Below are positions 43,143 to 64,000 of a DNA stretch of 64,000 bases, piece after piece. Below the pieces are notes generated by a model that was not told the DNA's origin, ran no database searches, and saw only the letters and a program-made list of their open reading frames with translations. Source of the stretch: Pseudomonadota bacterium (GTDB lineage: Bacteria > Desulfobacterota > Desulfobacteria > Desulfobacterales > RPRI01); contig JBDRRF010000116.1 in assembly GCA_043825875.1 (NCBI GenBank), positions 32,552 to 96,551 on the forward strand, given 5' to 3'. Position 1 is the stretch's first letter; every line of letters begins with the position of its first letter. The translations under genes were made by a program, and so were the position numbers.

Positions 43143-44555
43143 ATGCGTATCAAGCAAAATATTTTTAAAATTTTATTTTTTATCATTGCTATAGCAATAA
43201 CTCATGGTTGTGGGGGAGTTGACAGACCTTTAAACAATAAACAACTGAGTGGATTTGCAGCAGATGACGGTGCTTTACCTGTTTATGAGGGATATGTTGG
43301 AGAAAATCCTGATTCAGTTAAATCAGGAAATAAGCTGGGAGTTTGGTATTTAAAAACAGGCCGTTTCGATAAAGCAATTTCCGGATTTGAGGCTACCCTG
43401 GCAAAAGAACCCGGAGAACCATTCGCTACCTATTATCTTGGGCTTGCTTATCTTGGTAAGGAAAATTTCAATAAGGCCATACAGGTTTGGCAAAGTTACA
43501 AAAATAAGGATAACCCCATTTTGGAGGAAGCGATATCTCGACAAATCACATTGTTAAGAATTGCTCAATGCCGTAAACTTGCAACAAAAGCTCTTGCTCA
43601 GGAGAAAAAACTCATGGCAACAAAACCCGCTGCCAACACAGTTGCCATTTGCTATTATGAGGATCTTTCACCTGATAAAAGCCTTCATGCGTTCCGCAAA
43701 GGCCTTGCGGCAATGATTATTTCAGATCTTTCAAAAATAAAGTCAATACAAGTTGTAGAAAGAATCAGATTGCAGGCTCTTCTGGAAGAAATGAAGCTGG
43801 GGCAAACAGGCCTTGTTAAAAAGGATACAGCACCTAAGGTTGGTAAACTTCTTGGTGCCCGTAATATTGTTCTTGGCAATCTTTCACTTGGCAGTATTAA
43901 AGCCATAACCACCTTAGCTTCAACCGAAACTGAAAACATCAAAGGCAGTGAATCTGCATCTGTTGAAAAGGATAAGTTTTTTGAACTCCCTGCGATAATT
44001 ATAAATGATATTGCCAAAATCATGGGAATAAAGCTTACAGCTAAAGAAAAAAAGACCATCGGAGTTGCTCATACAAAGGTTTATAAGGCTTTGGTTTATT
44101 ATGGTAATGCACTTGATGCTTTAGATACCGGTAAATGGAAAGAGGCAAAGGGTTATTTCGATATGGCCCTTAAAGAAGACCCGAATTTTGATCTTGCAAA
44201 AGAAGCAGCGTACAGTTGCCCGGAGGCAAATTATCCGAGTATAAATAACATACTAAATTTAAAAGGCTCCAAAATATCAACCGCAATTGAAGCTTTAATG
44301 AGTTCTGAGGAAAGCAAATTGATAACAGGCTCTTCGATTGCATTTGACTATCTGAATAACAGTGGGTACACCGAAACAGATATTTTGGGAATAGATCTCG
44401 GAGATCTTGGAATAACCGGAGTAGGTGAAGAAACGTTGGAGGAAGAGAGTTGGACAACGCCGACAACGCCGACAACACCAACAACACCAACAACACCAAC
44501 AACACCAACAACACCGACAACACCGACAACACCTTTTACTGGGCCTTATCCATAA
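43143..44555 (+). CDS. TPR plus CsgG/HfaB/TolB-N-like lipoprotein with (TTP)9 tail
   Basis: Lipobox ITHGC; TPRs; QVVERIRLQALLEEMKLGQTGLV...KVGKLLGA. Confidence 0.8.
   Translation: MRIKQNIFKILFFIIAIAITHGCGGVDRPLNNKQLSGFAADDGALPVYEGYVGENPDSVKSGNKLGVWYLKTGRFDKAISGFEATLAKEPGEPFATYYLGLAYLGKENFNKAIQVWQSYKNKDNPILEEAISRQITLLRIAQCRKLATKALAQEKKLMATKPAANTVAICYYEDLSPDKSLHAFRKGLAAMIISDLSKIKSIQVVERIRLQALLEEMKLGQTGLVKKDTAPKVGKLLGARNIVLGNLSLGSIKAITTLASTETENIKGSESASVEKDKFFELPAIIINDIAKIMGIKLTAKEKKTIGVAHTKVYKALVYYGNALDALDTGKWKEAKGYFDMALKEDPNFDLAKEAAYSCPEANYPSINNILNLKGSKISTAIEALMSSEESKLITGSSIAFDYLNNSGYTETDILGIDLGDLGITGVGEETLEEESWTTPTTPTTPTTPTTPTTPTTPTTPTTPFTGPYP
44454..44534 (+). repeat. 9-bp tandem repeat x9 (ACAACRCCN) encoding (Thr-Thr-Pro)9
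   Basis: Counted directly: two ACAACGCCG, four ACAACACCA, two ACAACACCG, one ACAACACCT. Confidence 0.95.
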
Positions 44556-44726
44556 ATGGTGATAATTATATTAAATGAACACAATGCTAATATCGACTTT
44601 GAGGTAATTTAACGATTCAGTTATTTTCATTTAAATATGAATTCGATGCGAATTAATTGCAAGACAACTGGCCGATGAGACTTAAGTCCAGGTCTGAGAT
44701 GAGGAAGTCATCCAAAGGATACAAGA

Positions 44727-45452
44727 ATGAAAAATCTTAACATTCATTTCATTACAACACTTATACTTCTTTTGCTGTTTATTGGATGCGCCGGTGTTTC
44801 AAAAGAAATTGTCAAAGAGCATGAAAAACCATATAAAGCAGCTGTATATCAAGTGCCTGAAACAATGGCTGTATTGCCTTTTGAAAATAACTCTGTTACT
44901 GAACCTGAAAAATACGCTCCTTTAAGCAAGGGCCTTTCCGCCATGCTGACTACTGATCTAAAAAACAGCAATACAACTCTTCAGATCATTGAGCGTGAAA
45001 AAATTCAGGCAATTTTAAAAGAAATCGCTCTTGGCCAGACTGGCAGCGTGGATCAGTCGACCGCAGTAAAGGCCGGGAAATTGCTTGGAGCGCAATCCAT
45101 TGTCTTTGGATCTTTTATGGTGCTTGGCAACAATGTACGCATAGATGCCAGAATAATAAATGTCGAGACCGGAGAAGTCTTGATGGCTGAATTTATAACA
45201 GGAGACAGCGGCGGATTTATAAATATAGCTATTGACCTTGCTGCAAAGATTTCAAAATCAATGAAAGTTGCGTTTAATCCGGTTAAAGTTAAGAGTACCG
45301 GCAATCTGGATGCGGCAATTTATTTTTCAAAAGGGCTTGATGCGCTTGACAAGGGGGATAAAGAAGAAGCTAACAGGTTATTTTTAAAATGTATAAAACT
45401 TGACCCTGCATATAAGGTGCAGGTTGATAATGTGAAAGGTTTAACCAAATGA
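44727..45452 (+). CDS. CsgG/HfaB (FlgO/TolB-N-like) lipoprotein
   Basis: Lipobox FIGC; MAVLPFEN, IIEREKIQAILKEIALGQTGSVD..TAVKAGKLLGA, RIDARIINVETGEV. Confidence 0.85.
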   Translation: MKNLNIHFITTLILLLLFIGCAGVSKEIVKEHEKPYKAAVYQVPETMAVLPFENNSVTEPEKYAPLSKGLSAMLTTDLKNSNTTLQIIEREKIQAILKEIALGQTGSVDQSTAVKAGKLLGAQSIVFGSFMVLGNNVRIDARIINVETGEVLMAEFITGDSGGFINIAIDLAAKISKSMKVAFNPVKVKSTGNLDAAIYFSKGLDALDKGDKEEANRLFLKCIKLDPAYKVQVDNVKGLTK

Positions 45453-46576
45453 AAAAAACAGTATTATTCATGTTTGCATTTGCGGTTTTTCTGATTTTTA
45501 ACAGCAATTCTTTTGCAGAAGATAAAACCATTGAGGCTGAAGGGTTAAGTACCATATCAAGAGAAGATGCTATACGCCAGGCTCAGCGTTCAGCTGTTGA
45601 GCAGGGGGTTGGAATTTTTATTCAGTCTCAGACCGAAGTGGAAAATTTCGAACTCAAAAAAGATAAGATTTTTTCAAGAACCAAGGGCTATATCAAAAGA
45701 TTTTCAATACTAAAAGAAAGTAAAGATGAAGACTTATTTAAAATAATTATAAAAGCAACGGTTTCTCTTGATAAAATCAAAGATGACCTTATTGCTATGA
45801 AGATACTTCTTGCAAGCATGGAACACCCAAAACTGATGGTGCTTATCGAAGAAGATTATAAGAGTATGGACAATCTGGGAATGGGCATTGCCTCAACAGA
45901 AATGGCTTCATTGCTCGGTGCCAAAGGTTTTGAACTTGTCGATAAATCTCAGGTAGATGCAATAATGAACAATAATCAGGGAAGGCAAGCACTTGCCGGA
46001 AACACAAACGCCGCTAAAGCATTAGGGCTTAAGTTCGGAGCACAGTATGTTGTCGTTGGAAAAGCTGTTGCCCAGGATGCCGGAGAGGCTTATCCTGGTT
46101 CAGGACTTAAATCAATTCAGGCAAGCCTTCAATTAAAGGTTATTCAAACTCAGACAGGTCTTGTTTTAGGCTCGGTAGTTAAAACCGGGGTTTCTGCCCA
46201 TATAAGTCCTCTTATTGGTGCTACAACAGCAATCCAGATGAGTGCCAAAAAAGCTGTTGATGAATACCTGGTGAATGCAATTACTAATTCTTTCCAGGAT
46301 TTTTTAAATAACGGTACTCCCCTTAAGCTGCATATCACCGGTGTGGACTCTTTTCAGAAATCAAAATTGGTTACCGGAGCAATAGAAAGAACAGAAAAAG
46401 TTGCCAGCAGCAAGAAAGAGGGATGGAGTAAGGCCGGCGGTATCCTTGAACTCGGTCTGCTCTATAAAGGTACAAGCGAGGAACTGGCTGAAGTGATTGA
46501 CGGGAAAATAGTCGGTAATGGCAAGCTTGAAGTTATTGATGTTGCACCTGAAAGGCTCGACTGTAATCTAAAATAA
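45449..46576 (+). CDS. Exported protein with FlgT N-terminal-like domain
   Basis: Signal peptide ending SFA; IEAEG..SREDAIRQAQRSAVEQGVG.FIQSQTEVENF..KDKIFS...GYI; ATGA overlap with the upstream gene. Confidence 0.75.
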   Translation: MKKTVLFMFAFAVFLIFNSNSFAEDKTIEAEGLSTISREDAIRQAQRSAVEQGVGIFIQSQTEVENFELKKDKIFSRTKGYIKRFSILKESKDEDLFKIIIKATVSLDKIKDDLIAMKILLASMEHPKLMVLIEEDYKSMDNLGMGIASTEMASLLGAKGFELVDKSQVDAIMNNNQGRQALAGNTNAAKALGLKFGAQYVVVGKAVAQDAGEAYPGSGLKSIQASLQLKVIQTQTGLVLGSVVKTGVSAHISPLIGATTAIQMSAKKAVDEYLVNAITNSFQDFLNNGTPLKLHITGVDSFQKSKLVTGAIERTEKVASSKKEGWSKAGGILELGLLYKGTSEELAEVIDGKIVGNGKLEVIDVAPERLDCNLK

Positions 46577-52922: not shown

Positions 52923-53033
52923 TTATTGAAGTTTTGTTCTTATCCAGGCAGGGTTTCTTCGACAGTCGATGACAGCATAAATTCTTATCTCGTTTTCTTC
53001 AATTCTGTAATATATTGCAAATGGAAATCTTTT
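52923..53033 (-). pseudogene. C-terminal remnant of a RelE/ParE toxin
   Basis: An alternative frame reads KRFPFAIYYRIEENEIRIYAVIDCRRNPAWIRTKLQ-stop; the N-terminal half is missing. Confidence 0.8.
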
Positions 53034-53218
53034 TTTGCTTGTTCCCAGTCGATAAACTTCTCTTTTCCGATTTTATATTTTTCTTCCCTATCTTTTAAAA
53101 TTTCTCCATGCCATTGGGGTGAAGCATAATCCGGAACATTTCGACAAATGTCATCCCAAAGCAATTCCATTGTTCTTAGCTTTTCTTCTATAGTCATTTC
53201 ATGGAGATTTAAACTCAT
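52985..53218 (-). CDS. Addiction module antitoxin (Unstab_antitox-like) with out-of-frame C-terminal tail
   Basis: MTIEEKLRTMELLWDDI...SPQWHGEILKDRE...FIDWEQAKKD, then reads out of frame through the toxin remnant. Confidence 0.8.
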   Translation of the reverse strand: MSLNLHEMTIEEKLRTMELLWDDICRNVPDYASPQWHGEILKDREEKYKIGKEKFIDWEQAKKDFHLQYITELKKTR

Positions 53219-53478
53219 TATTCCCCCCTATTTTTACAAAATTCTAACTTATTATTTATAACAATACCTATTTTAAATCAAATAAGTTTTTAATATAGAG
53301 ACAAAACTTGTTACCCTAAGTTCAAAATTTGATACTATTTATTTTATAAGAATTTACAAATAATATTATATTTCCTAACGTTTACATGATCCTTGAGAAA
53401 CGACTCAGAAAGTAGCTTGTTATTGGTAAATAAAGTGTATAAAATAAAGAAAACTTATATTTTAAGGAGGATAAGCAT

Positions 53479-53667
53479 ATGGAAACCGAGAACATAAAGC
53501 ATGAAGCTTACAAGATATTAGATAAATTGCCCGACAAAGCTACATGGGATGATTTGATGTATCAAATCTATGTGCGCCAGACAATAGAAGCAGGTATAAA
53601 AGACAGTGATGAAGGGCGGACAGTTGATGTTAAGGAAGTACGCAAAAGGTTTGACCTGTCAAAATGA
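53479..53667 (+). CDS. Putative antitoxin
   Basis: AAGGAGG RBS; LDKLPDKATWDDLMYQIYVRQTIEAG..D..EGRTV; ATGA overlap with the toxin. Confidence 0.8.
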   Translation: METENIKHEAYKILDKLPDKATWDDLMYQIYVRQTIEAGIKDSDEGRTVDVKEVRKRFDLSK

Positions 53668-53952
53668 GAGTTTACTGGACAGAAAAACGCTATCGGACAT
53701 CTTGTAAACATTTACGAATACATTGCCATCAATTCTCCGACTTATGGTAAACGGATGGTTGACAGGATTACCCGGCGCTCAGAGCAAATCGCGGGTCACC
53801 CGCTTTCCGGAAGAAAAGTGCCGGAATATGATGCTGAAGATATCCGTGAACTGATAGAAAACCCATATCGTATCATCTACCGCATAAAGCCGGATCAAAT
53901 CGATATTGTTGCGGTTATCCACGGGGTAAGAATATTGCCGGATGAATTATAA
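53664..53952 (+). pseudogene. RelE/ParE toxin with +1 frameshift
   Basis: Removing one A from the run at 53683-53687 restores MRVYWTENAIGHLVNIYEYIAINSPTYGKRMVDRI...GRKVPEY...YRIIYRI...VIHG; length 289 = 96x3+1. Confidence 0.85.
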
Positions 53953-54372: not shown

Positions 54373-54957
54373 TTATTGCCCTACTTCAATAACGGTTATA
54401 GTCCGGCCATAATAATCAGGTTTATAAGCTGCTTTATTATAACCTATACCAGAGTTTACTTTCCACAGAAGTTTTACTGTATGGGTGCCGGATTGAACTG
54501 TCGCAACGGCGTGGCCACCTGACGAGTCTACTGTGTTATAAAAGACACCATCCCTACTGGTGTTGCTACCGCCAAAATGCGAACCAATAGCTATTCCGTC
54601 TAGTTGCGTTTCGACTGTAACCCACACAGAATCTAAATTACTATAAAGTGTGGCATTCCAAAATATTAATAAAATACTGTTTCCTGTGGTTAAAGTAATA
54701 CTCATCTCAGGCATATCAACAAAAGTAGTAGAGCTAGTGGAGATATCGGAAGTAGGGCTTACGCTCAGAATTTGCCTTATTATTCCAGGCCCCACAAATC
54801 CTGTTGCTTTCACAGTGCCATTAACATCCAGTTTCTCGGTTGGTGTGGTTGTACCCACACCAACATTGCCATTTACAATAAGATCTCCATCTGCTGCAAA
54901 TCCGTTACTTCCGATCAACAACAAACCTAAGACAAAACCCAAAATACTTTTTTTCAT
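54373..54957 (-). CDS. Secreted protein with phage tail-fibre-like GNVGVGTTTP..KLDVNG motif and beta-rich tip domain
   Basis: GGAGG RBS; signal peptide MKKSILGFVLGLLLIGSNGFA; one fibre-shaft repeat; C-domain STTFVDMP..SITLTT...GTHTVKLLWK...RTITVIEV. Confidence 0.7.
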   Translation of the reverse strand: MKKSILGFVLGLLLIGSNGFAADGDLIVNGNVGVGTTTPTEKLDVNGTVKATGFVGPGIIRQILSVSPTSDISTSSTTFVDMPEMSITLTTGNSILLIFWNATLYSNLDSVWVTVETQLDGIAIGSHFGGSNTSRDGVFYNTVDSSGGHAVATVQSGTHTVKLLWKVNSGIGYNKAAYKPDYYGRTITVIEVGQ

Positions 54958-55005
54958 TATCATCCTCCTCTTATTAATTGTAGTATTGTCAAAAATATAT
55001 TAAAT

Positions 55006-55147
55006 GAGCCAGTTTCAAAACGCCCCATTTTGGCCGATCTCTGCGTTGGGCTCAAATTTCAATCCTCGAAATACTCAATGTATTCCTGTGGTTGAAATTT
55101 TCGCCCGCCTTGAGCTTGACCAAACTGAAACGTTTTGGAAGTGGCTC
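55006..55147 (-). mobile_element. 142-bp MITE, copy 3 (inverted)
   Basis: Reverse complement of copies 1 and 2, flanked by an AAAT direct repeat. Confidence 0.9.
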
Positions 55148-55230
55148 AAATATCTTAAATTATTTCGGTCTATCTATATTTAACCGGCGTTAATTTATTT
55201 TCTCAAGTTTGCTACTAAAAATTGAATATC

Positions 55231-55450
55231 GAATTTCGAACAAGGAATTTCGGATTATGAATTTTTTTTATTCTTACTCTTTGCAGTATTAATGCTTGTA
55301 ACAAATATTTATATTATATGTGACTTCCTACTTTTGTTTTAGGTAACGATCCTGACAACTTGATGATTCTCACAGCAAAATCTATTAACCGATCCTCGAT
55401 ATCATATCTCTTATCTTCCTTCGACATTCATTATTCCTTGTTCGATATTC
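55231..55450. repeat. Spaced inverted repeat GAAT[AT]TCGAACAAGGAAT
   Basis: Left arm about 55231-55261, right arm about 55420-55450. Confidence 0.55.
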
Positions 55451-55462
55451 AAATATCTCTAC

Positions 55463-55567
55463 TTAGTGCCCGTCCCAAAATGGTAAATTGCGGTTCAGAT
55501 CAAGGCCGCAGCGTTTTTGAAAACAGCAGATATGCGCCGCAAGATGCCGTTTATGGATGGACGCTAA
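55463..55567. mobile_element. Second MITE-like element (about 105 bp)
   Basis: Imperfect TIRs TTAGTGCCCGTCCCAAAATGGTA / TGCCGTTTATGGATGGACGCTAA; GC-richer than flanks; overlaps the TAG stop of the adjacent ORF. Confidence 0.5.
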
Positions 55568-57399
55568 TTATTCTCCAGCACAAAGTTCTTTATCGTAAGC
55601 GTTCCTCCATTCGGATACGTTTGTATCATTCCTTTTAATGATGTGCTTCCTGTTATAGCCGTAAAATCAGAATTATAACCACCTTCCATAGAAACCGAAA
55701 TATCTCTGTTTACATCAAGGCTTTGTGTAATTTGTTGATCCTGAACCTGGATTACGTCTTCGATGGAAGCAGCATTGTAGGCATCCTGCAAGAAGTTAAA
55801 ATATAAAGGGGGTGTTCCGGCAATACGTATAAGCCCTGTGGAAGTTATGGATATTGTATAATCCTGGGTTTGAACGGATTCAGCATACCCCGCTAAATCA
55901 ATAGCAAAATATTTTAGTGTAGAAGTTTCGGTTATTTCAATCGGGGCAGTATAAACTGCTGATGCAGTTGTTGGTGTTGAGCCATCAGTTGTATAATATA
56001 TCTTATCGCAGCCCGAACCTGATAGATCATCACATGTAAGAGCTACTGCCACAGCCGAAGAAAAGGGGCCTCCGGCAGGTGATGCGGTTGTCACAGGAGC
56101 AGTTGTATCTGATATATTATCTATAATAATATTTTTTATAGTAACTGTACCGCCACCTGGATATGTCTGGATTTTTCCTTTTATAGAAGTAGCCCCGGTT
56201 GCGGCTGTAAATCCCGGATCATAACCACCTTCCATAGAAACAGAGATATCTCTGTTTACATTAAGGTTTTGAATAAATAGATAATCCTGAAACTGGATAA
56301 CATCGCCGTCAGTGGCTGCATTGTATGCATCCTGTAAAGAATAATAATATACAGCCGGATTGCTTAAATTGCGTATTACTCCATCTGGTAAAACAAAATC
56401 TATTATATAAACCTGAGTTTGAAAAGTTTCGTTATTTGTCGCTAAATCAGTTGCAAAATATTTAAGTGTTGTAGTTTCGGTTATTTCAATCGGAGCAGTA
56501 TAAACTGCTGATGCAGTTGTTGGTATTGCGCCATCAGTTGTATAAAATATCTTGTCACAACTCGAACCTGATCCATCATCACATGCAAAAGCTACTTCGA
56601 TAGCTGAAGAAAAGGTTCCTCCGGCAGGTGTTGCAGTGGTAACAGGAGCTGTTGTATCCAAAAGAATTGTATCGGTATATGCCGTCGACCAGTTGCCGGC
56701 ATTATCTTTGAATTTGGCATATACGGTTTTATCGCCATCACCTATTGCTAAATCCCAGATCTTTGTATCGGCGTATGCTTCGGCAGTCGAATAATTAATG
56801 CCGTCATTTGAAAACTGCATTTGTGAACAACCGTTTGCATCGCTACATGTCAATGTGAGTGAAACATTTGCATTGTTAGTTATTGCCGCCCCAGAGTTTA
56901 TTATTATTGAGCCAGTTGGAATTATAGCATCAAGGGTATAAGTCTCGGACTTTGGAGGGGTCTCGGTATTTCCTGCATGATCAACGGCAAAGAACATAAG
57001 TGTTGTTGTATCGGCTATTGTTAGCGGAGTTGTATAAACTGCAGATGCAGTGGTGGGGGGTATTCCATCAATGGTGTAATAAATCTTGTCACAACCTGAA
57101 TCATCTCCGTCACTACAGGAAAGTTCAACCTGAAGAGTTTCAACAAATGTCATTCCGGCAGGCATAGCTATAGAAACAGGAGCATTCACATCAACAAGAC
57201 TTGTCTTATCTATAATGTTCCCCACTTCATCATATGTATATTTTAAAAATTTGCCATCATCATAAACAACTCTTATCAAGCGGTTAATATCATCGTAAAC
57301 GTATTTAATAGGTCCCGCATAAGAAGATATCAGCAATGTAAAAAACAGCACTATAACTGCCAAACAGATAAATACTACACGCTTTTGCATCGATAGCAT
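55564..57399 (-). CDS. Secreted protein: one YD/RHS hairpin unit, three chitobiase-C/Fn3-associated-like domains, an Ig-like domain and two LQDAYNAA domains
   Basis: Signal peptide ending SSYA; YVYDDINRLIRVVYDDGKFLKYTYDEVGNI; three (I[YF]YT.DG..PTTASAVYT.P) units; two (LQDAYNAA..DVIQ..NRDISVSMEGGY) units. Start ATG 57399. Confidence 0.8.
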   Translation of the reverse strand: MLSMQKRVVFICLAVIVLFFTLLISSYAGPIKYVYDDINRLIRVVYDDGKFLKYTYDEVGNIIDKTSLVDVNAPVSIAMPAGMTFVETLQVELSCSDGDDSGCDKIYYTIDGIPPTTASAVYTTPLTIADTTTLMFFAVDHAGNTETPPKSETYTLDAIIPTGSIIINSGAAITNNANVSLTLTCSDANGCSQMQFSNDGINYSTAEAYADTKIWDLAIGDGDKTVYAKFKDNAGNWSTAYTDTILLDTTAPVTTATPAGGTFSSAIEVAFACDDGSGSSCDKIFYTTDGAIPTTASAVYTAPIEITETTTLKYFATDLATNNETFQTQVYIIDFVLPDGVIRNLSNPAVYYYSLQDAYNAATDGDVIQFQDYLFIQNLNVNRDISVSMEGGYDPGFTAATGATSIKGKIQTYPGGGTVTIKNIIIDNISDTTAPVTTASPAGGPFSSAVAVALTCDDLSGSGCDKIYYTTDGSTPTTASAVYTAPIEITETSTLKYFAIDLAGYAESVQTQDYTISITSTGLIRIAGTPPLYFNFLQDAYNAASIEDVIQVQDQQITQSLDVNRDISVSMEGGYNSDFTAITGSTSLKGMIQTYPNGGTLTIKNFVLENN

Positions 57400-57424
57400 T
57401 GTGTTAACCCCCGTTGTAAAATAT

Positions 57425-57817
57425 TTACTCGCATTGAAATTTATAAGTTTTAGTTGATTCAACCCTACATGTTATTTCAGGATCAGCAGGACTTGCGGTA
57501 TGATCTTCACATGAGCCTAAGCAATTTTGTTCGCATGGCTCTACGCACCAATCATCTTCATATTTATATTGTCCGACAACAACCGCATCAGCCACCCAAT
57601 AGCCATCCCAAGCTTCGGGGGCACACTCACTAATTAAAACCCATTTGCAATTTGCGAAACCTTCAGCAAATCCCCGTGTTCGTATACTATTACCTCCAGA
57701 CGAGGGGGCTGTAGAAATACTGCAGCTATTATCAGCCTTTGCAGGTAAACTCAGGTTCAGGCAAAATGTAAACATCAGAATGATAAAGCAAAGTGTAAAG
57801 ATTTTTTGTTTAAACAT
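57425..57817 (-). CDS. Secreted Cys-rich small protein, paralog A
   Basis: GAGG RBS, ATG 57817; MFKQKIFTLCFIILMFTFCLNLSLPAKA-DNSC; ends TYKFQCE. Confidence 0.7.
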   Translation of the reverse strand: MFKQKIFTLCFIILMFTFCLNLSLPAKADNSCSISTAPSSGGNSIRTRGFAEGFANCKWVLISECAPEAWDGYWVADAVVVGQYKYEDDWCVEPCEQNCLGSCEDHTASPADPEITCRVESTKTYKFQCE

Positions 57818-59330
57818 GGTTCCTCTCAATATGAAATATTGTTGTAAAAGGTGTTCTTAAAAATGAATATGTTTTTTTGCATATTTTATTGTTTTAAATT
57901 TTAAAACTCTATAAAGAAGAATTAATAGAGTATTTCCCTAAATACCTAAATTAAACCTTCCCGATGCATTCACCGGGGAATGCGGTTGCTGTTTTGGGTC
58001 ATAAATTCGGTTAAGTATTGTCATTTCGAACAAAGAGAGAAATGTGACATCGAAATTATGAAGCAGAGTACTAACTCTTTTCCGAAAACAGATTAACCGG
58101 ATTCCCTCCTATGAAATATTAACGATCCTAACCATTTTTTCTTCTTTCATTTCCTCCATGGTAGCTTGGTAATGGCAAAGTCTAATAGAAACTGTATAAC
58201 TAAAGAACGTACTTAATATCTCCACCGTCACCGATATCTCCCCCTTATTAATTACATTTCCATTTATATGTATATGCATTACAACTTTTTAAATTTGATA
58301 AGTTACAATAATCTGGATTAGAGCCAACTGAATAACAATTCCCACCTTTAACACCATTTGGACAAGTATAAGAGCCATCACCTCCAAAACAGCGATTTTG
58401 CATAAAGGCAGTTTCTACTTTAGTATCTCCATTGATATAAATACACTTACAATACTTGCCCCAAACACCAGAAACACATGTATCTACACCAACCCATCTA
58501 CCTGTAGCACATCTCACATATCCAGTAGCTAACTTCTCATTGCATCCGGTTATAGTTATTGTCGCTGAGCCACATGCCGAACTACTTGCTTTAATTCTTT
58601 TTGAAAGATGAGTATCTGGAATATCTTCCAACGAAAATCCAGTTCCTATTACAGACCATGTATATTTTCCACCCACACCATCTTTTTCTATTATTGTTAA
58701 AACGCGGGTTGAATTTCTTGCAAGGTTTGTTGTTGAATTTGCATCATTCCATTTGATTGTAGTCTTTTCTGAACAGTAAGGCTCAGTGCGTTCAACATTG
58801 CCTGCAATAGAAGGCGATATTGAATTATTACAACTTTTATCAGCATTTACAGGCAAGCCCGGATTCAGGCAAAATGTGAGCACTAGAATGATAAAGTATA
58901 GTGTAAAGTATTTTCGTTTAAACATGGTTCCTCTCAATATCAAATATTGTTGTAAAAGGTGTTCTTAAAAATGAATATGTTTTTTTGCATATTTTATTGT
59001 TTTAAATTTTAAAACTCTATAAAGAAGAATTAATAGAGTATTTCCCTAAATACCTAAATTAAACCTTCCCGATTCATTCACCGGGGATTGCACTTGCTGT
59101 TTTGCTTCATAAATTCTATTAAGTATTGTCATTTCGAACAAAGAGAGAAATCTGACATCGAAATTATGAAGTAGAGTATTAAGTCTTTTTCGAAAACAGA
59201 TTAACCGAATTCCCTCTTATGAAATATTAACGATCCTAACATTTTTTTCTTCTTTCATTTCCTCAATGGTAGCTGGGCAAAAGAAACAACCAAAAGAAAC
59301 TGTATAACTCAAGAATGCCCCCGATATACC
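57690..59330. repeat. About 530-bp direct duplication with 1108-bp period
   Basis: About 57690-58220 matches about 58800-59330; nearly identical across the upstream noncoding region and more diverged in the coding part. Confidence 0.9.
58248..58925 (-). CDS. Secreted Cys-rich protein, paralog B
   Basis: ATG 58925; MFKRKYFTLYFIILVLTFCLNPGLPVNA-DKSC; beta-rich middle; ends TYKWKCN. Confidence 0.7.
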   Translation of the reverse strand: MFKRKYFTLYFIILVLTFCLNPGLPVNADKSCNNSISPSIAGNVERTEPYCSEKTTIKWNDANSTTNLARNSTRVLTIIEKDGVGGKYTWSVIGTGFSLEDIPDTHLSKRIKASSSACGSATITITGCNEKLATGYVRCATGRWVGVDTCVSGVWGKYCKCIYINGDTKVETAFMQNRCFGGDGSYTCPNGVKGGNCYSVGSNPDYCNLSNLKSCNAYTYKWKCN

Positions 59331-59393
59331 GAAAATTCCCCCTTTAAAAATTGCCACTCTTCACACCCACCAAGATACCATTCTACATTCACT

Positions 59394-59770
59394 TCCCCCT
59401 TAAAAAAGGGGGATTAAGGGGGTAGTTTCCTTATTCAATATTCTTCTTTCTTTCAAATGGGCTTTATATCCCACACCCCGCTATGGCAATTAAGTTCCAT
59501 CAATCTTTCAACAAGAGCTAAGAGTAGACCTGACAACAATTATCCTATTAGTCATAAATCAAGGTTTGACCCCAATTTTTTCCCCAAAATCAAGGTTTGA
59601 CCCCAATCTTTTTCGGTTTTCTTTCTCAGCACCACGCAATCTTAATAAAATATCAATTTGTCAAGTTAGTTCAGAAATCAAGGTTTGACCCTGATAGTTT
59701 TCAACAAGAGCCAAGAGTAGGCCTGACAACAATTATCCTATTAGTCACAAAAACAAGGTTTGACCCCGAT
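59394..59770. repeat. Repeat-rich spacer: REP-like copy 4, four AATCAAGGTTTGACCC motifs and an approximately 75-bp direct repeat
   Basis: Motif at 59557, 59588, 59676 and 59751; about 59496-59575 repeats at about 59698-59770; about 59435-59575 is homologous to about 52710-52845. Confidence 0.8.
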
Positions 59771-59918
59771 TTTCTTTTTTTCTATCTGACCGCTTGCTGT
59801 GGTTTTTAAATATGAAACTAGGCTAACCATTATTTCTTCTTTCATTTCCTCAATTGTAGCTTAGTAAGGGCAAAATCTATTAGAAACTGCATAACTCAGG
59901 AACGTCCCCGATATCCCC

Positions 59919-60344
59919 CTACGGCTTTAGCGACTTAAGTTTGTGAAAATTTATTAGATATACTGTTAGGCCATCTGATGTAAAATTTTGTTTTTTAAGT
60001 GTTTCTTTTAACTGCGGCGAAAGATGGATAATTGATTCATCCTTTGAATCATTACACCCAATATAAATATTTTTCCTGTAAGCATTATCAGTCTCAGGTT
60101 GAATATAATCAGGGCCTATTCCTTCAAGAAGCTCAAGAAGTTCATTTAAACGCTCTATTTCCACGCCAGGACCAATCAGCAAAATGAATTTCGAAGGTTT
60201 AGTAGGTGGATCTGAACTGGACCCAAAAGTATCGGTTAAAGGTATCTCCGAAACTTCAAAACGGTCAAGTATTTTTTCAGACACTGCAAATAAGTCATTA
60301 AGATAAATTGTATAGCCAAGCCATCTTCTGGGTTTCATCAACAT
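59919..60344 (-). CDS. Putative immunity protein for the Rhs toxin
   Basis: 141-aa ORF with AAGGAG RBS, the first gene downstream of the Rhs C-terminus. Role inferred from position only. Confidence 0.55.
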   Translation of the reverse strand: MLMKPRRWLGYTIYLNDLFAVSEKILDRFEVSEIPLTDTFGSSSDPPTKPSKFILLIGPGVEIERLNELLELLEGIGPDYIQPETDNAYRKNIYIGCNDSKDESIIHLSPQLKETLKKQNFTSDGLTVYLINFHKLKSLKP

Positions 60345-60430
60345 ATTTTCTATCTCCTTACCTAATAAAGATTTTTTAGAGGTTATTTGTAAACTATAGC
60401 TTCCTCTAGTAGCTATAGTTTATTACAAAA

Positions 60431-63400
60431 CTATTGAGGAGGTGGCGTTGGCTTCCATTTACCATCATGAGGATCCTTTTTTTCCCATTTCCCAGTTTGA
60501 GGATTTTGTCTTTTCTTTTTATCAGGTTTTGGACTGCGATCTCCTGGGCCTGTATATTTTCTTTCGCCCTTTCCTGTTTTTCCGCCTTTCCTTGCCTCCA
60601 TGTAAGGGATTTCGCAAACTTCACTTTTATATACTTTATCTCCAAACCAAATAAGTATTCTCCAAGGAAGCATTTGATTCCAGTGTATATACGCAGAAAC
60701 ATCTCTGACAATATAATTATTTTCAGGAGTACCTCGCCGAAATACAGGATGTGCATCTGGACTGATAATTCCAGTTGGATTAGGTTTTGCAATAGTTTGT
60801 AACCCCTTAGAATCAGTCAAATTCAGTGGATTGTTTTCAACATAAGAAAATAAATTAATCCCTCCTGCCAACCCAATCGGATCGGCCCTCAAATACCTCC
60901 CCGTACCCGGATCATAATACCTAAAATAATTATAATGCAACCCCGTCTCTGCATCATAATATTGCCCCGGAAACCTAAAATTATTCACCACAGTAGAATT
61001 CGGATTTACATCCGCTTCCCCATATGGCTTATACACAGCCTCCCACACAACAGTATTAGTAGAATCCGTCAATATCTGCGGTGTTCCCAACTGATCGTTG
61101 CCATAGTAGTATAACGCACCACTTCCGACATCAACCAGCACAAGCATGTTACTTCCCCTGTAAAGATATTCTTTCGAGAAAACACTACTTGCATCACTTT
61201 CTCCGATAATATTGCCGTCAAAATCATAATGAAAAACAGTCGTTACTCCACTTGCTACCTTGATAATCCTTTGCCCAAGCCCGTTGTATGTATATTGGCC
61301 TAAAACAGTGCTATTTACCTCAACTTTTATTAATCGGTTGTTTTGATTGTAAGTTAATACTCTGTTCCCAATATCCGTTATATTCCCATTGGCATCATAA
61401 AAATAATTCTTGGTTTCTGTATCTGTAATGGTTTGATACAGCCTGTTTGTACCAGGATAGTATGTATATGTTGTAGGCGTTTCGTTCACCCGGTTGTACC
61501 AGGGAGTCGATGGCGCATCTACCGATGTGAGATTGCCATTGTTATCATATCCGTATGTCATCTCATGTTCGGCTCCGGGATTGGATGCGGTTAATTTGCC
61601 GGACAGATTATACACACTTCCCACAATACCACCGGCACCGTTATCCATAGCGGTAGCTCCGCCAAACGGACGATAAGCAAGATTATCCATTATCGTAACA
61701 GTACTTGCCCCGAAAGTAGTTGTAACAGAATCCACACTGCATGCACACGCCGTCCTGTGATAATCCACAGTTCTTCCCGTGGGATATATTAATGAGCTTA
61801 CCCTGCCTCCGGGAGTATATGTTCTTGATACCGGATAAACCTGCCCGCTTACCGTGGCGGTTTTACCGGCAAGCCGCCCCCTGTTATCATACCCAAAATT
61901 TGTAATTCCCGACTGATCAGTCATGCCGGACATAAAGCCTATCGCATTTGTACCCTGATCATAGGAATAGATTATATCCTGTGATGAATCAGGAAAATGC
62001 ACAGCGGTCAGTCTGTTAAGATCATCATAATCGTATTGCACCACAATGGCTTTTGCATCTTCTTTTTGCTTAAGATTACCAGCTTCATCATAAAAATACT
62101 TTACCGTTCCGGTATCAGGCGATACGGTTTGAACAAGCCTTCCCATATCATCATACTGGTATGTGGTTACATGAGATTTGGCATCGGTAACTGATGCAAG
62201 GCTTCCGTGGCCGTCATAAGCATAGCCCGTTATCAGGTTGCCGGGCTGAGTTACAGTTTTTAGCCGGTTTAAGGCATCGTATGTATAGCTTGTGGTTTTT
62301 CCGTTAAAATCGGTTACAGCAGATACATTGCCTCTTTGGTCATAGGCATATTCCATGAATGTATCGTCATGCTTGATCTCTTTGTAAAGCTTTCCGGGTA
62401 TAGCCGGATGCTGATAGCTAAAACGCTTCCAGTTTGTGCGTATTGCCGCCGGATCATAATAACTCTTATCTGTCAGATTACCCTGAGTGTCATACAGGTT
62501 ATCAATATAATTGCCCTCATGATCGGTAACCCGTGAAAGCCTTCCGTAAGTTGTGTCATAAGTATAACCGGTGTTAACGCTGTCTTCATCGGTTCTTGAT
62601 TCTATAAATCCGGCAGTATTAAAGGTAGTGCTTGCCGTGCTGGAATCATCGGCATGATACACATCCGTAGCCCTTCCCCTGCCATCATATGTGTATGTGT
62701 TTACATGACCGTTTACATCGGTAGTCTGACCAACCTGACCGGCATTGTCATAATTTTGAAAAAGACTGCTTCCAACAAGCGGTCTTGTAATGGATGTAAT
62801 ATCACCTGTACTTGTGTTATAGGCAAAAGTACTTGTATCTGCGGTTCCGGCAATAGGACCGTCTATGGATAAAATCTGACCTTTGGCATTGTAAGTAATC
62901 TTTGTTATATATTCATAAGCAACTGTTGCTCCGGTATTATCTGCTGTAAAACCCTGCTCGATAACCCGGCACAAATTCCCCGTTGGGTTCTGGTTTGGCG
63001 TGCTGTTGTAATCATCATCATAATCCCAGATGGTAACCTTGTTGCCTGAACCCAAAACACTGACTTCCGTTCTGTTTAAGGGCACATTCATATCGGGATG
63101 ATAGGTATAAATGATTGTTCTTTGTTCGGTTGTGCCTGAAGCCAGTATAACGGTTGCCGGATTTCCTTTTGTGTCATAGTTCTGATAAAGGTTTATAACG
63201 CTTCCGGTATCTTCGGTCTCAACAAGATTCATGTTTGCGTCATAATCCCATCTTACAACATTATTTGCGCTGTACGGTGCTTCTGCAATGCCGCTTGCCG
63301 CAGTTACTCTTTTTCTGCCTCCTTCTTCGCCGATACTATAACTTCTTAGCACACTATAGGCATCGGTGACATCTACCTGGGTATCACTAACATAATTTAC

Positions 63401-64000
63401 AGATACTCCTGTTCCGTTAACACTGAAATTATTTACAGCCATGTCAAAAATATCGTATGCCCAGGTGTTTAAAAGATGATTTGCTTTGTTTCTTTTTTCA
63501 CTTACATTGTGAATGTCATTTGGATCGGTATAAGCATAGCTGAATCCCGAACCATCGGCATATGTAACGCTTATAAGATTTGCATTTGCGTCATAGCCGT
63601 ATTGCACCCATATACCGTCTGTAACAGCAGATGTAACCGGCCCTGTGATATTTTCCAAAAGATTATTTGCATTGTAATTTAATGTCAGTATTCTTGCGCT
63701 TGAAGTATCTGTAACTGTAGAAACCTGATCATTTGCATTATAGGCTATTTCAAGACTGTTTGATTTTTCATCTGTAATGCTGATAAGTTTTCCTGAAGAA
63801 TTGAAAGTATATTGCGATCCGTCAGTACGACGCCAGATGTATTCTCCTGATACATATGAAAGAGTTGAATGTTCATTAAAAGCCGCCTGATAAACACCCG
63901 GAGTTGTTTCTTCAAAAAAGATCCCTCTTCCGGTAGCATCCGTTATTTTGATATAATCTATGCTCCTATACTGGTAGGCAGCATCAAGAGATACTTCATA
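60431..64000 (-). CDS. Rhs/YD-repeat polymorphic toxin; 5' end outside the window
   Basis: The frame is open to base 64000 (YEVSLDAAYQ...NNLLENITG), beyond the ORF-track start. Many YD repeats; core end RFPGQYYDAETGLHYNYFRYYDPGTGRYLRADPIGLAGGINLFSYVENNPLNLTDSKGL; about 115-aa tip. Confidence 0.95.
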   Translation of the reverse strand, partial: YEVSLDAAYQYRSIDYIKITDATGRGIFFEETTPGVYQAAFNEHSTLSYVSGEYIWRRTDGSQYTFNSSGKLISITDEKSNSLEIAYNANDQVSTVTDTSSARILTLNYNANNLLENITGPVTSAVTDGIWVQYGYDANANLISVTYADGSGFSYAYTDPNDIHNVSEKRNKANHLLNTWAYDIFDMAVNNFSVNGTGVSVNYVSDTQVDVTDAYSVLRSYSIGEEGGRKRVTAASGIAEAPYSANNVVRWDYDANMNLVETEDTGSVINLYQNYDTKGNPATVILASGTTEQRTIIYTYHPDMNVPLNRTEVSVLGSGNKVTIWDYDDDYNSTPNQNPTGNLCRVIEQGFTADNTGATVAYEYITKITYNAKGQILSIDGPIAGTADTSTFAYNTSTGDITSITRPLVGSSLFQNYDNAGQVGQTTDVNGHVNTYTYDGRGRATDVYHADDSSTASTTFNTAGFIESRTDEDSVNTGYTYDTTYGRLSRVTDHEGNYIDNLYDTQGNLTDKSYYDPAAIRTNWKRFSYQHPAIPGKLYKEIKHDDTFMEYAYDQRGNVSAVTDFNGKTTSYTYDALNRLKTVTQPGNLITGYAYDGHGSLASVTDAKSHVTTYQYDDMGRLVQTVSPDTGTVKYFYDEAGNLKQKEDAKAIVVQYDYDDLNRLTAVHFPDSSQDIIYSYDQGTNAIGFMSGMTDQSGITNFGYDNRGRLAGKTATVSGQVYPVSRTYTPGGRVSSLIYPTGRTVDYHRTACACSVDSVTTTFGASTVTIMDNLAYRPFGGATAMDNGAGGIVGSVYNLSGKLTASNPGAEHEMTYGYDNNGNLTSVDAPSTPWYNRVNETPTTYTYYPGTNRLYQTITDTETKNYFYDANGNITDIGNRVLTYNQNNRLIKVEVNSTVLGQYTYNGLGQRIIKVASGVTTVFHYDFDGNIIGESDASSVFSKEYLYRGSNMLVLVDVGSGALYYYGNDQLGTPQILTDSTNTVVWEAVYKPYGEADVNPNSTVVNNFRFPGQYYDAETGLHYNYFRYYDPGTGRYLRADPIGLAGGINLFSYVENNPLNLTDSKGLQTIAKPNPTGIISPDAHPVFRRGTPENNYIVRDVSAYIHWNQMLPWRILIWFGDKVYKSEVCEIPYMEARKGGKTGKGERKYTGPGDRSPKPDKKKRQNPQTGKWEKKDPHDGKWKPTPPPQ

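Follow-up and report, generated by a model that had tools for sequence, protein, structure and literature searches.

The window analysed here comprises 64,000 nucleotides (nt) from a Pseudomonadota bacterium placed in the Desulfobacterales (Desulfobacterota; assembly GCA_043825875.1), and forms the final 64 kb of contig JBDRRF010000116.1 (C116) in a genome of 4.77 Mb that is 99.8% complete. Its end carries six minus-strand genes: one for an Rhs protein (60431..64000), followed by those for a putative immunity protein (59919..60344), two Cys-rich proteins (58248..58925 and 57425..57817), a protein joining one YD repeat to immunoglobulin (Ig)-like domains (55564..57399), and a fibre-like protein (54373..54957). 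All six open reading frames (ORFs) lie where an earlier reading of this DNA (the original prediction) had placed them, and the signal peptides that it assigned to the last four are borne out by hydrophobic leaders with AxA-like sites at their ends, as judged by eye and hydropathy. Features within these genes are likewise on the minus strand. Our focus is on the Rhs protein, which lacks one repeat of its YD cage, and on its secreted neighbour, which carries a single such repeat.

The visible part of the Rhs protein (1189 amino acids (aa); its 5' end is cut by the contig end) consists of a YD-repeat cage and an Rhs core with a DPxG...DxxG motif. It matches RHS_repeat, RHS and TIGR03696 in Pfam and NCBIfam scans (PF05593, E 2e-45; TIGR03696, E 2e-26), and thus combines the YD-repeat array and Rhs-associated core that mark Rhs/YD polymorphic toxins. 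At one site in the cage, the window protein has a linker of 19 aa (61460..61516) where near relatives have 53 aa, so that one 34-aa YD repeat is missing; among 22 near relatives the segment measures 53 aa in 21 and 63 aa in one. A wider alignment of 35 rows, some of them near-copies, held segments of 53 aa (21 rows), 63 aa (one), 18-19 aa (nine, including the window protein), 23 aa (two, both mis-registered short rows from locus L030) and 10 aa (two, from L160 and L170). The eight further rows with 18-19 aa are more distant from the window protein, and a gene for a secreted hairpin protein, described below, occurs in the locus or genome of each.

A tree built with the segment removed (27 rows, six distant rows having been dropped by name and two short ones by length) nested the window Rhs among the long forms, as sister to the repeat-complete Rhs of L012 (support 100/100). 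Because of this placement, at least two changes between short and long must have occurred, and the two forms have interconverted more than once. Contigs from two studies, one identical and one 90% alike, cross the site without gaps, which argues that the missing repeat is not an assembly slip; the run that yielded the 90%-alike contig also contains pieces resembling the hairpin gene. A structural model of aa 470-1069 was all-beta, with a predicted local distance difference test score (pLDDT) of 85 and a predicted template-modelling score (pTM) of 0.82. In this model, residues 360-374 are not in strands and pLDDT dips to 60; the linker is the longest non-strand link within the modelled cage and the lowest-confidence stretch ahead of the core. 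Tse15, a solved type VI secretion system (T6SS) Rhs effector, has the repeat built in, as judged by eye from a printed alignment.

The secreted neighbour is a 611-aa protein whose gene most likely starts with the ATG at 57399. It consists of a signal peptide, one YD repeat, three CHB_HEX_C_1 Ig-like domains, one Big-like domain and two copies of a C-terminal 'cap' domain. The YD repeat (57202..57315) stands at the predicted mature N-terminus, straight after the leader, and is the proposed donor hairpin; the linker in the Rhs cage is the proposed slot. A consensus of this hairpin from 37 partner proteins, in which it begins directly after the leader, matches the repeat missing from the window Rhs. 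The partner bodies behind it are highly variable, ranging from 80 to more than 2000 aa and including Ig domains, LamG-like domains and repeats; a few (L181, L186, L195 and L031) are tiny or have just a dockerin-like or membrane-tail domain.

Several variants of this arrangement were seen in passing. One genus has a leader-hairpin protein in frame with an Rhs N-terminus (L031:1-2770, minus strand; L182:9833-10993), with acidic repeats, a membrane-tail-like stretch and a second leader lying between the two parts in L031. A 2244-aa secreted protein just 5' of a repeat-complete Rhs (L023:60-6794) ends in half a YD repeat and might be a variant that donates a strand from its C-terminus. A further leader-hairpin gene, truncated and 53% identical (G000:C33:2087-2677, L026), has fragments of a different Rhs type on one side and a transposase on the other.

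A profile of leader plus hairpin, built from six rows, found matches in 38 of 401 genomes of the phylum and 31 of 301 genomes of the order, counts that include the window genome and some internal Rhs repeats, with 15-20 candidates scored per genome. We fetched 40 loci from about 100 matches listed, choosing the best with the leader aligned. An Rhs/YD gene lay within 2.7 kb of the hairpin gene in 29 of these 40, on the same strand in 28; of the 11 loci left, nine run into a contig end within 2.2 kb and two have no Rhs gene. Where the repeat site could be read, short-form Rhs genes stood beside the hairpin genes of L030, L158, L159, L175, L176, L180, L182, L184, L189, L190, L196 and L197.

The association was also approached from the Rhs side. 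A TIGR03696 search of 201 genomes gave 314 matches, about 150 of which were listed. Forty loci whose frames span about 1000-2800 aa were drawn from these; we followed the list approximately and passed over loci met before. By eye, 32 were long, six were short and two received no call. Within equal fetched stretches, a hairpin gene accompanied none of the 32 repeat-complete Rhs genes and two of the six repeat-lacking ones (Fisher p 0.021, for loci that are kin and not independent, with short and long assigned by eye and several loci in distant Rhs subfamilies). Three of the remaining short forms have a hairpin gene 5-15 kb away, bringing the count to five of six within about 15 kb in a wider look that covered the short forms only, and the sixth, a truncated locus, has one on another small contig. 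In G715, which supplied four of the fetched Rhs loci, the single hairpin match adjoins the sole short one.

The interpretation towards which we lean, by a modest degree, is that the hairpin protein supplies the missing repeat in trans to a Sec-exported Rhs cage and displays its Ig and cap domains as an aiming part. Such docking would rest on the sequence match and the co-occurrence just described. A plainer account is that this is an ordinary Sec-exported Rhs toxin within a variable surface-protein island: the hairpin would be a leftover Rhs fragment, idle or serving as a recombination aid, the cage would simply be shorter, and the neighbours would be independent adhesins. Rhs loci are recombination hot spots, the island contains a 494-nt duplication and dispersed repeats, the deletion is flanked by a short YNR/GNR likeness, and some hairpin and Cys-module genes have no Rhs neighbour. 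The hairpin, however, always sits behind its own leader and is always the same one repeat; moreover, the hairpin gene tracks the short form in the Rhs-first control, and a pairing of hairpin and fibre genes is conserved across families. We regard this account as unlikely.

The fibre-like protein (194 aa) has a conserved N-terminal motif, a fibre repeat and an exchangeable head, and gave a weak PHROG tail match (E 0.001). Its 72 relatives share the leader, a nine-residue motif and the fibre repeat. Eighteen, including the window protein, are full-length, and the remainder bear other heads (for example S74 chaperone, LamG, F5/8 or tail collar). The motif occurs in three of 401 genomes, the window genome among them. 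Two of its three matches outside the window directly follow a cap-bearing hairpin gene; the third (L157) is a real but truncated remnant near a contig start. One of the first two, L158, belongs to another family and has the gene order Rhs, immunity, orphan tip, hairpin/Ig and fibre, and in L029 a different fibre gene stands between a Cys-module gene and Rhs. Viral contigs yielded no member of the fibre family. The fibre protein likely acts together with the cap-bearing hairpin protein.

The two Cys-rich proteins were predicted to be paralogs, which holds in part. A direct duplication of 494 nt (57714-58207 and 58822-59315, span 57714..59315, without strand; 89.7% alike) takes in the leader and upstream DNA of both genes, and the proteins agree at 52.5% over their first 59 aa; the shorter one (130 aa, 11 Cys), however, shares only the leader and these residues and has no Ig neck. 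Besides the 225-aa protein, it has no relative among the fetched sequences. The longer protein (225 aa, 15 Cys) consists of a signal peptide, an 85-aa Big_2-like Ig neck (58491-58754) and a hypervariable head ending in W-x-C. Head length and Cys pattern vary among all relatives, and the W-x-C end is nearly always kept. In a structural model the neck (residues 22-113) is a Big_2-type Ig beta-sandwich, matching many Big_2-type chains with Z 8-9.3 and a root-mean-square deviation (rmsd) of 2.1-2.9 over 80-88 aa. These include T5 pb6 (5NGJ, Z 9.1, rmsd 2.1 over 82 aa), the lambda tail-tube Ig domain (2L04, Z 8.7) and LigA (8GYR, Z 9.3); the top rows are tied, and the assignment is therefore to a fold only. 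The head was poorly modelled, and an Atlas search returned weak Big_2 leads (score 0.76-0.80, template-modelling score <0.5).

This Ig-neck/Cys-head module is found in three settings. The neck was matched by 2844 cluster representatives at E up to 0.001. Free leader-bearing modules stand beside Rhs genes in L012 (twice), L015, L017, L018, L021 and L029, and a weak, short relative does so on contig C23 of the window genome. In a genome search starting from the module, which gave ten new loci, three of five leader-bearing matches adjoin Rhs. Among 80 metagenome loci, eight of 19 hand-picked leader-bearing ones adjoin Rhs, and ten of the 11 others are on contigs shorter than 2.6 kb. The second setting is phage-like: five of the ten new genome loci resemble prophage tail regions, the module occurs in 16 IMG/VR loci, none of which has an Rhs gene, and four of eight scanned carriers match PHROG tail families (L139 and L143 at E ~1e-45; L054 and L117 more weakly). 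In carriers with PHROG tail matches, such as L139 and L143, the complete module forms the end of the protein, a position also taken by the terminal Ig domains of phage tail proteins; the window module, by contrast, has its own leader and adjoins Rhs. The phage contigs L139:1853-7054 and L145:6116-12003 carry two or three tandem genes, each with a different Cys head at its end, possibly receptor-range cassettes. The Rhs N-termini of L032:1-2091 (minus strand), L160:191-4504 and L170:10979-15361 open, by eye, with an Ig-like stretch resembling the neck.

The third setting is fusion to Rhs: in seven of the 80 metagenome loci, the module ends the cargo of an Rhs protein and is preceded by the core motif and a hydrophobic stretch rich in Gly. 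These loci, in a colicin-like layout, are L063:5096-10516, L068, L074, L078, L083, L089 and L062. A binding role for the module would fit this pairing of a membrane-type domain with a tail-end module in Rhs cargo. Both Cys-rich proteins of the window are probably additional binding modules of phage origin.

As for the cargo of the window Rhs, a C-terminal tip of about 123 aa (60431..60802) follows the core motif. The tip had no match in PHROGs or NCBIfam, a search among longer proteins returned the tip alone, and Pfam found no toxin family in the whole Rhs. The 141-aa protein encoded directly after the tip is called an immunity protein by position only; Pfam, PHROGs and NCBIfam scans gave it no family, and the Atlas no usable look-alike. 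Tips differ among the Rhs relatives, and a small gene downstream of the tip completes the layout of polymorphic toxins, by analogy with which the window Rhs likely carries a toxin tip. Orphan tips, said by the original prediction to be lacking, are indeed missing from the window locus, but two follow the paralogous Rhs on C23. That the cage is instead an adhesin or scaffold with an inert tip, and no weapon, would agree with the lack of family matches for tip and immunity gene, and with the module-cargo Rhs loci, most of which have no immunity-like gene next. We consider it highly improbable given the polymorphic-toxin pattern: the core motif is intact, and relatives have orphan tips as well as tips that vary and are followed by small genes.

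The original prediction took the Rhs protein to be independent of the T6SS, with its N-terminus outside the window. The N-terminus is indeed unseen, but the window ends exactly where contig C116 ends, so this part is unassembled and not merely out of view; no overlap of C116 with other contigs of the genome was found. T6SS independence gained support. TssC (PF05943), PAAR (PF05488) and VgrG (PF04717) had no match anywhere in the genome, two GspD secretin genes scored above the TIGR02517 cut-off, and a leader opens both the C23 paralogue of the window Rhs (41% identical) and its sister in L012. From these three lines of evidence, Sec export of the window Rhs is likely. The N-terminus of the closest relative, L011 (90.6% nt identity over 1845 nt), is made up of a leader, a propeller and IPT-like repeats. 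Contig C85 of the window genome (2456 nt) encodes the same three elements, is 78% alike to the N-terminal part of L011, and breaks off about 440 nt before the point where C116 begins; on this likeness, C85 is likely the N-terminus of the window Rhs. Run X1 contains a second Rhs copy, about 90% alike and at similar depth. Neither TcA nor SpvB-type TcB was among the scanned locus proteins, no genome-wide search for TcA/TcB or EagR having been made.

With these components, the favoured mechanism would run as follows. Rhs cage and partner would be exported by their signal peptides and then, probably, by type II secretion (T2SS). Once the leader is cleaved, the hairpin, now free at the N-terminus of the partner, would insert between the strands that flank the long linker, as the sequence match and co-occurrence suggest, and a surface would be bound by the partner's variable domains. 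If the analogy with known Rhs proteins holds, the tip would be released through cleavage by the core, and immunity would come from the gene that follows. The hairpin could also enter the slot as a lid or anchor, sealing a side opening or tying the cage to the producer's surface until release. The tiny and the dockerin-like or membrane-tail-only partners would suit such a role, as would the side opening for cargo exit in Vibrio RhsP, reported at second hand in bioRxiv 2024.02.26.582050, and the display of known Sec-exported YD proteins on the producer through adhesion domains, as described in PMC13018210 and PMC3482391. The wide variation of the partner bodies and the likeness of the linked fibre and Cys modules to phage tail ends fit target binding better than a plain lid, and we think the lid or anchor improbable.

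Several points weigh against complementation in trans, beyond the kinship of the control loci, their by-eye assignment and the restriction of the wider look to short forms. The match in linker length is no independent proof, because the loss of any whole repeat would yield the same length. In L160 and L170 the repeat is retained despite the presence of a hairpin gene, the next repeat seemingly being absent instead, and about 11 hairpin-linked Rhs proteins were left unread at the repeat site. No Rhs occurs in the roughly 9 kb to each side of the hairpin genes of L183 and L192, and none is near the leader-bearing Cys-module genes of L049 and L050, two of the five from the genome search. Toxicity of the tip is assumed, since neither tip nor immunity gene has known relatives. 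Because run X1 holds a second similar Rhs copy, C85 may belong to that copy, and its join to C116 is putative.

The original prediction went on to propose a particle with exchangeable secreted receptor-binding subunits. For the YD-hairpin/Ig protein this idea has been sharpened to a defined docking hypothesis that comparative data support; no single particle of all four proteins emerged, the Cys-rich and fibre proteins being tied to Rhs by neighbourhood and domain fusion. The survey of co-occurrence that it proposed shows all three accessory families recurring beside Rhs genes in other genomes; of the two findings named as telling against it, a PAAR/VgrG context and a lack of Rhs linkage elsewhere, neither was made. 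More tentatively, at somewhat less than an even chance, these loci may represent a widespread, as yet undescribed class of Rhs particles that work independently of the T6SS, occur in as many as about one-tenth of the phylum genomes sampled and are built by donor-hairpin complementation, with adhesin bodies plugged in and phage-derived fibres and Ig-neck/Cys-head modules widening the aiming repertoire.

Known systems share parts of this design. The accessible part of the account of Sec/T2SS-exported Rhs polymorphic toxins (Zhang et al. 2012, PMC3482391) describes a signal peptide, RHS repeats, adhesion or Ig domains N-terminal to or among the repeats, and a variable tip with an immunity gene, all as here; its adhesion domains lie inside the toxin chain, whereas in our case a second gene encodes a secreted protein with one wall repeat and the domains joined to it. 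Bacterial teneurin-like proteins, reported from Thermodesulfobacteriota (PMC13018210), similarly have signal peptides, a YD shell around a toxin and variable adhesion domains; these domains are in the same chain, and the word hairpin does not occur in that text. T6SS Rhs effectors (Tse15, 8UY4; 8H8A; RhsA, 7Q97) have the YD cage and Rhs core in common with the window protein (sequence homology at E ~1e-10 to 6e-6), but PAAR, VgrG and TssC are unmatched in the window genome, and Tse15 retains the repeat that the window Rhs lacks. The Streptomyces umbrella toxin particles UmbABC (PMC11062931) also pair a secreted polymorphic toxin that contains repeats with variable binding subunits encoded by genes of their own, an arrangement that the window locus putatively shares; docking there uses an N-terminal strand that enters a cleft. 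They differ in having TAT export and five spokes, in contrast to a YD cage scaffold, Sec-looking export and one putative slot; moreover, the window locus has no ALF repeats, trypsin-like UmbA or UmbB, its proteins giving YD and Ig families only. By this comparison, umbrella particles are a functional analogue, not a family to which the locus belongs.

Other features were observed around the locus and elsewhere. Window positions 55005-55150 hold a repeat of about 143 nt with an internal inverted repeat, resembling miniature inverted-repeat transposable elements or repetitive extragenic palindromes; it has very many copies in the genome, often at contig ends. Just past the fibre gene (52985-53900) lie an addiction-module component (PF09720) and an apparent small ParE-type toxin-antitoxin pair, and an operon at 43143-46576 encodes TPR/CsgG-like lipoproteins as well as a FlgT-like protein, its first product ending in a Thr-Pro-Thr repeat. 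On G000:C112:39-5307, a gene pair (a secreted protein with a short conserved domain and a carboxypeptidase-regulatory-like lipoprotein) occurs three times in tandem after an IPT-containing protein; the same gene set lies upstream of Rhs in L019.

The Rhs locus itself is of a known kind; what is new is a separate secreted hairpin partner that matches a missing cage repeat. No description of such a partner was found in the titles and abstract openings searched, a coverage that takes in few subscription journals and no supplements. To our knowledge, how Rhs cages without an injection machine reach their target is an open question, and the arrangement described here, if true, would be a plug-in answer to target finding by Sec-exported cages. 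The slot-and-hairpin joint would give a testable assembly rule, by which a partner gene could be predicted from whether the cage has or lacks one repeat. Small proteins with a single YD repeat, commonly annotated as Rhs fragments, would become genuine subunits, and phage tail-end modules would be linked to toxin delivery in a little-studied anaerobic phylum.

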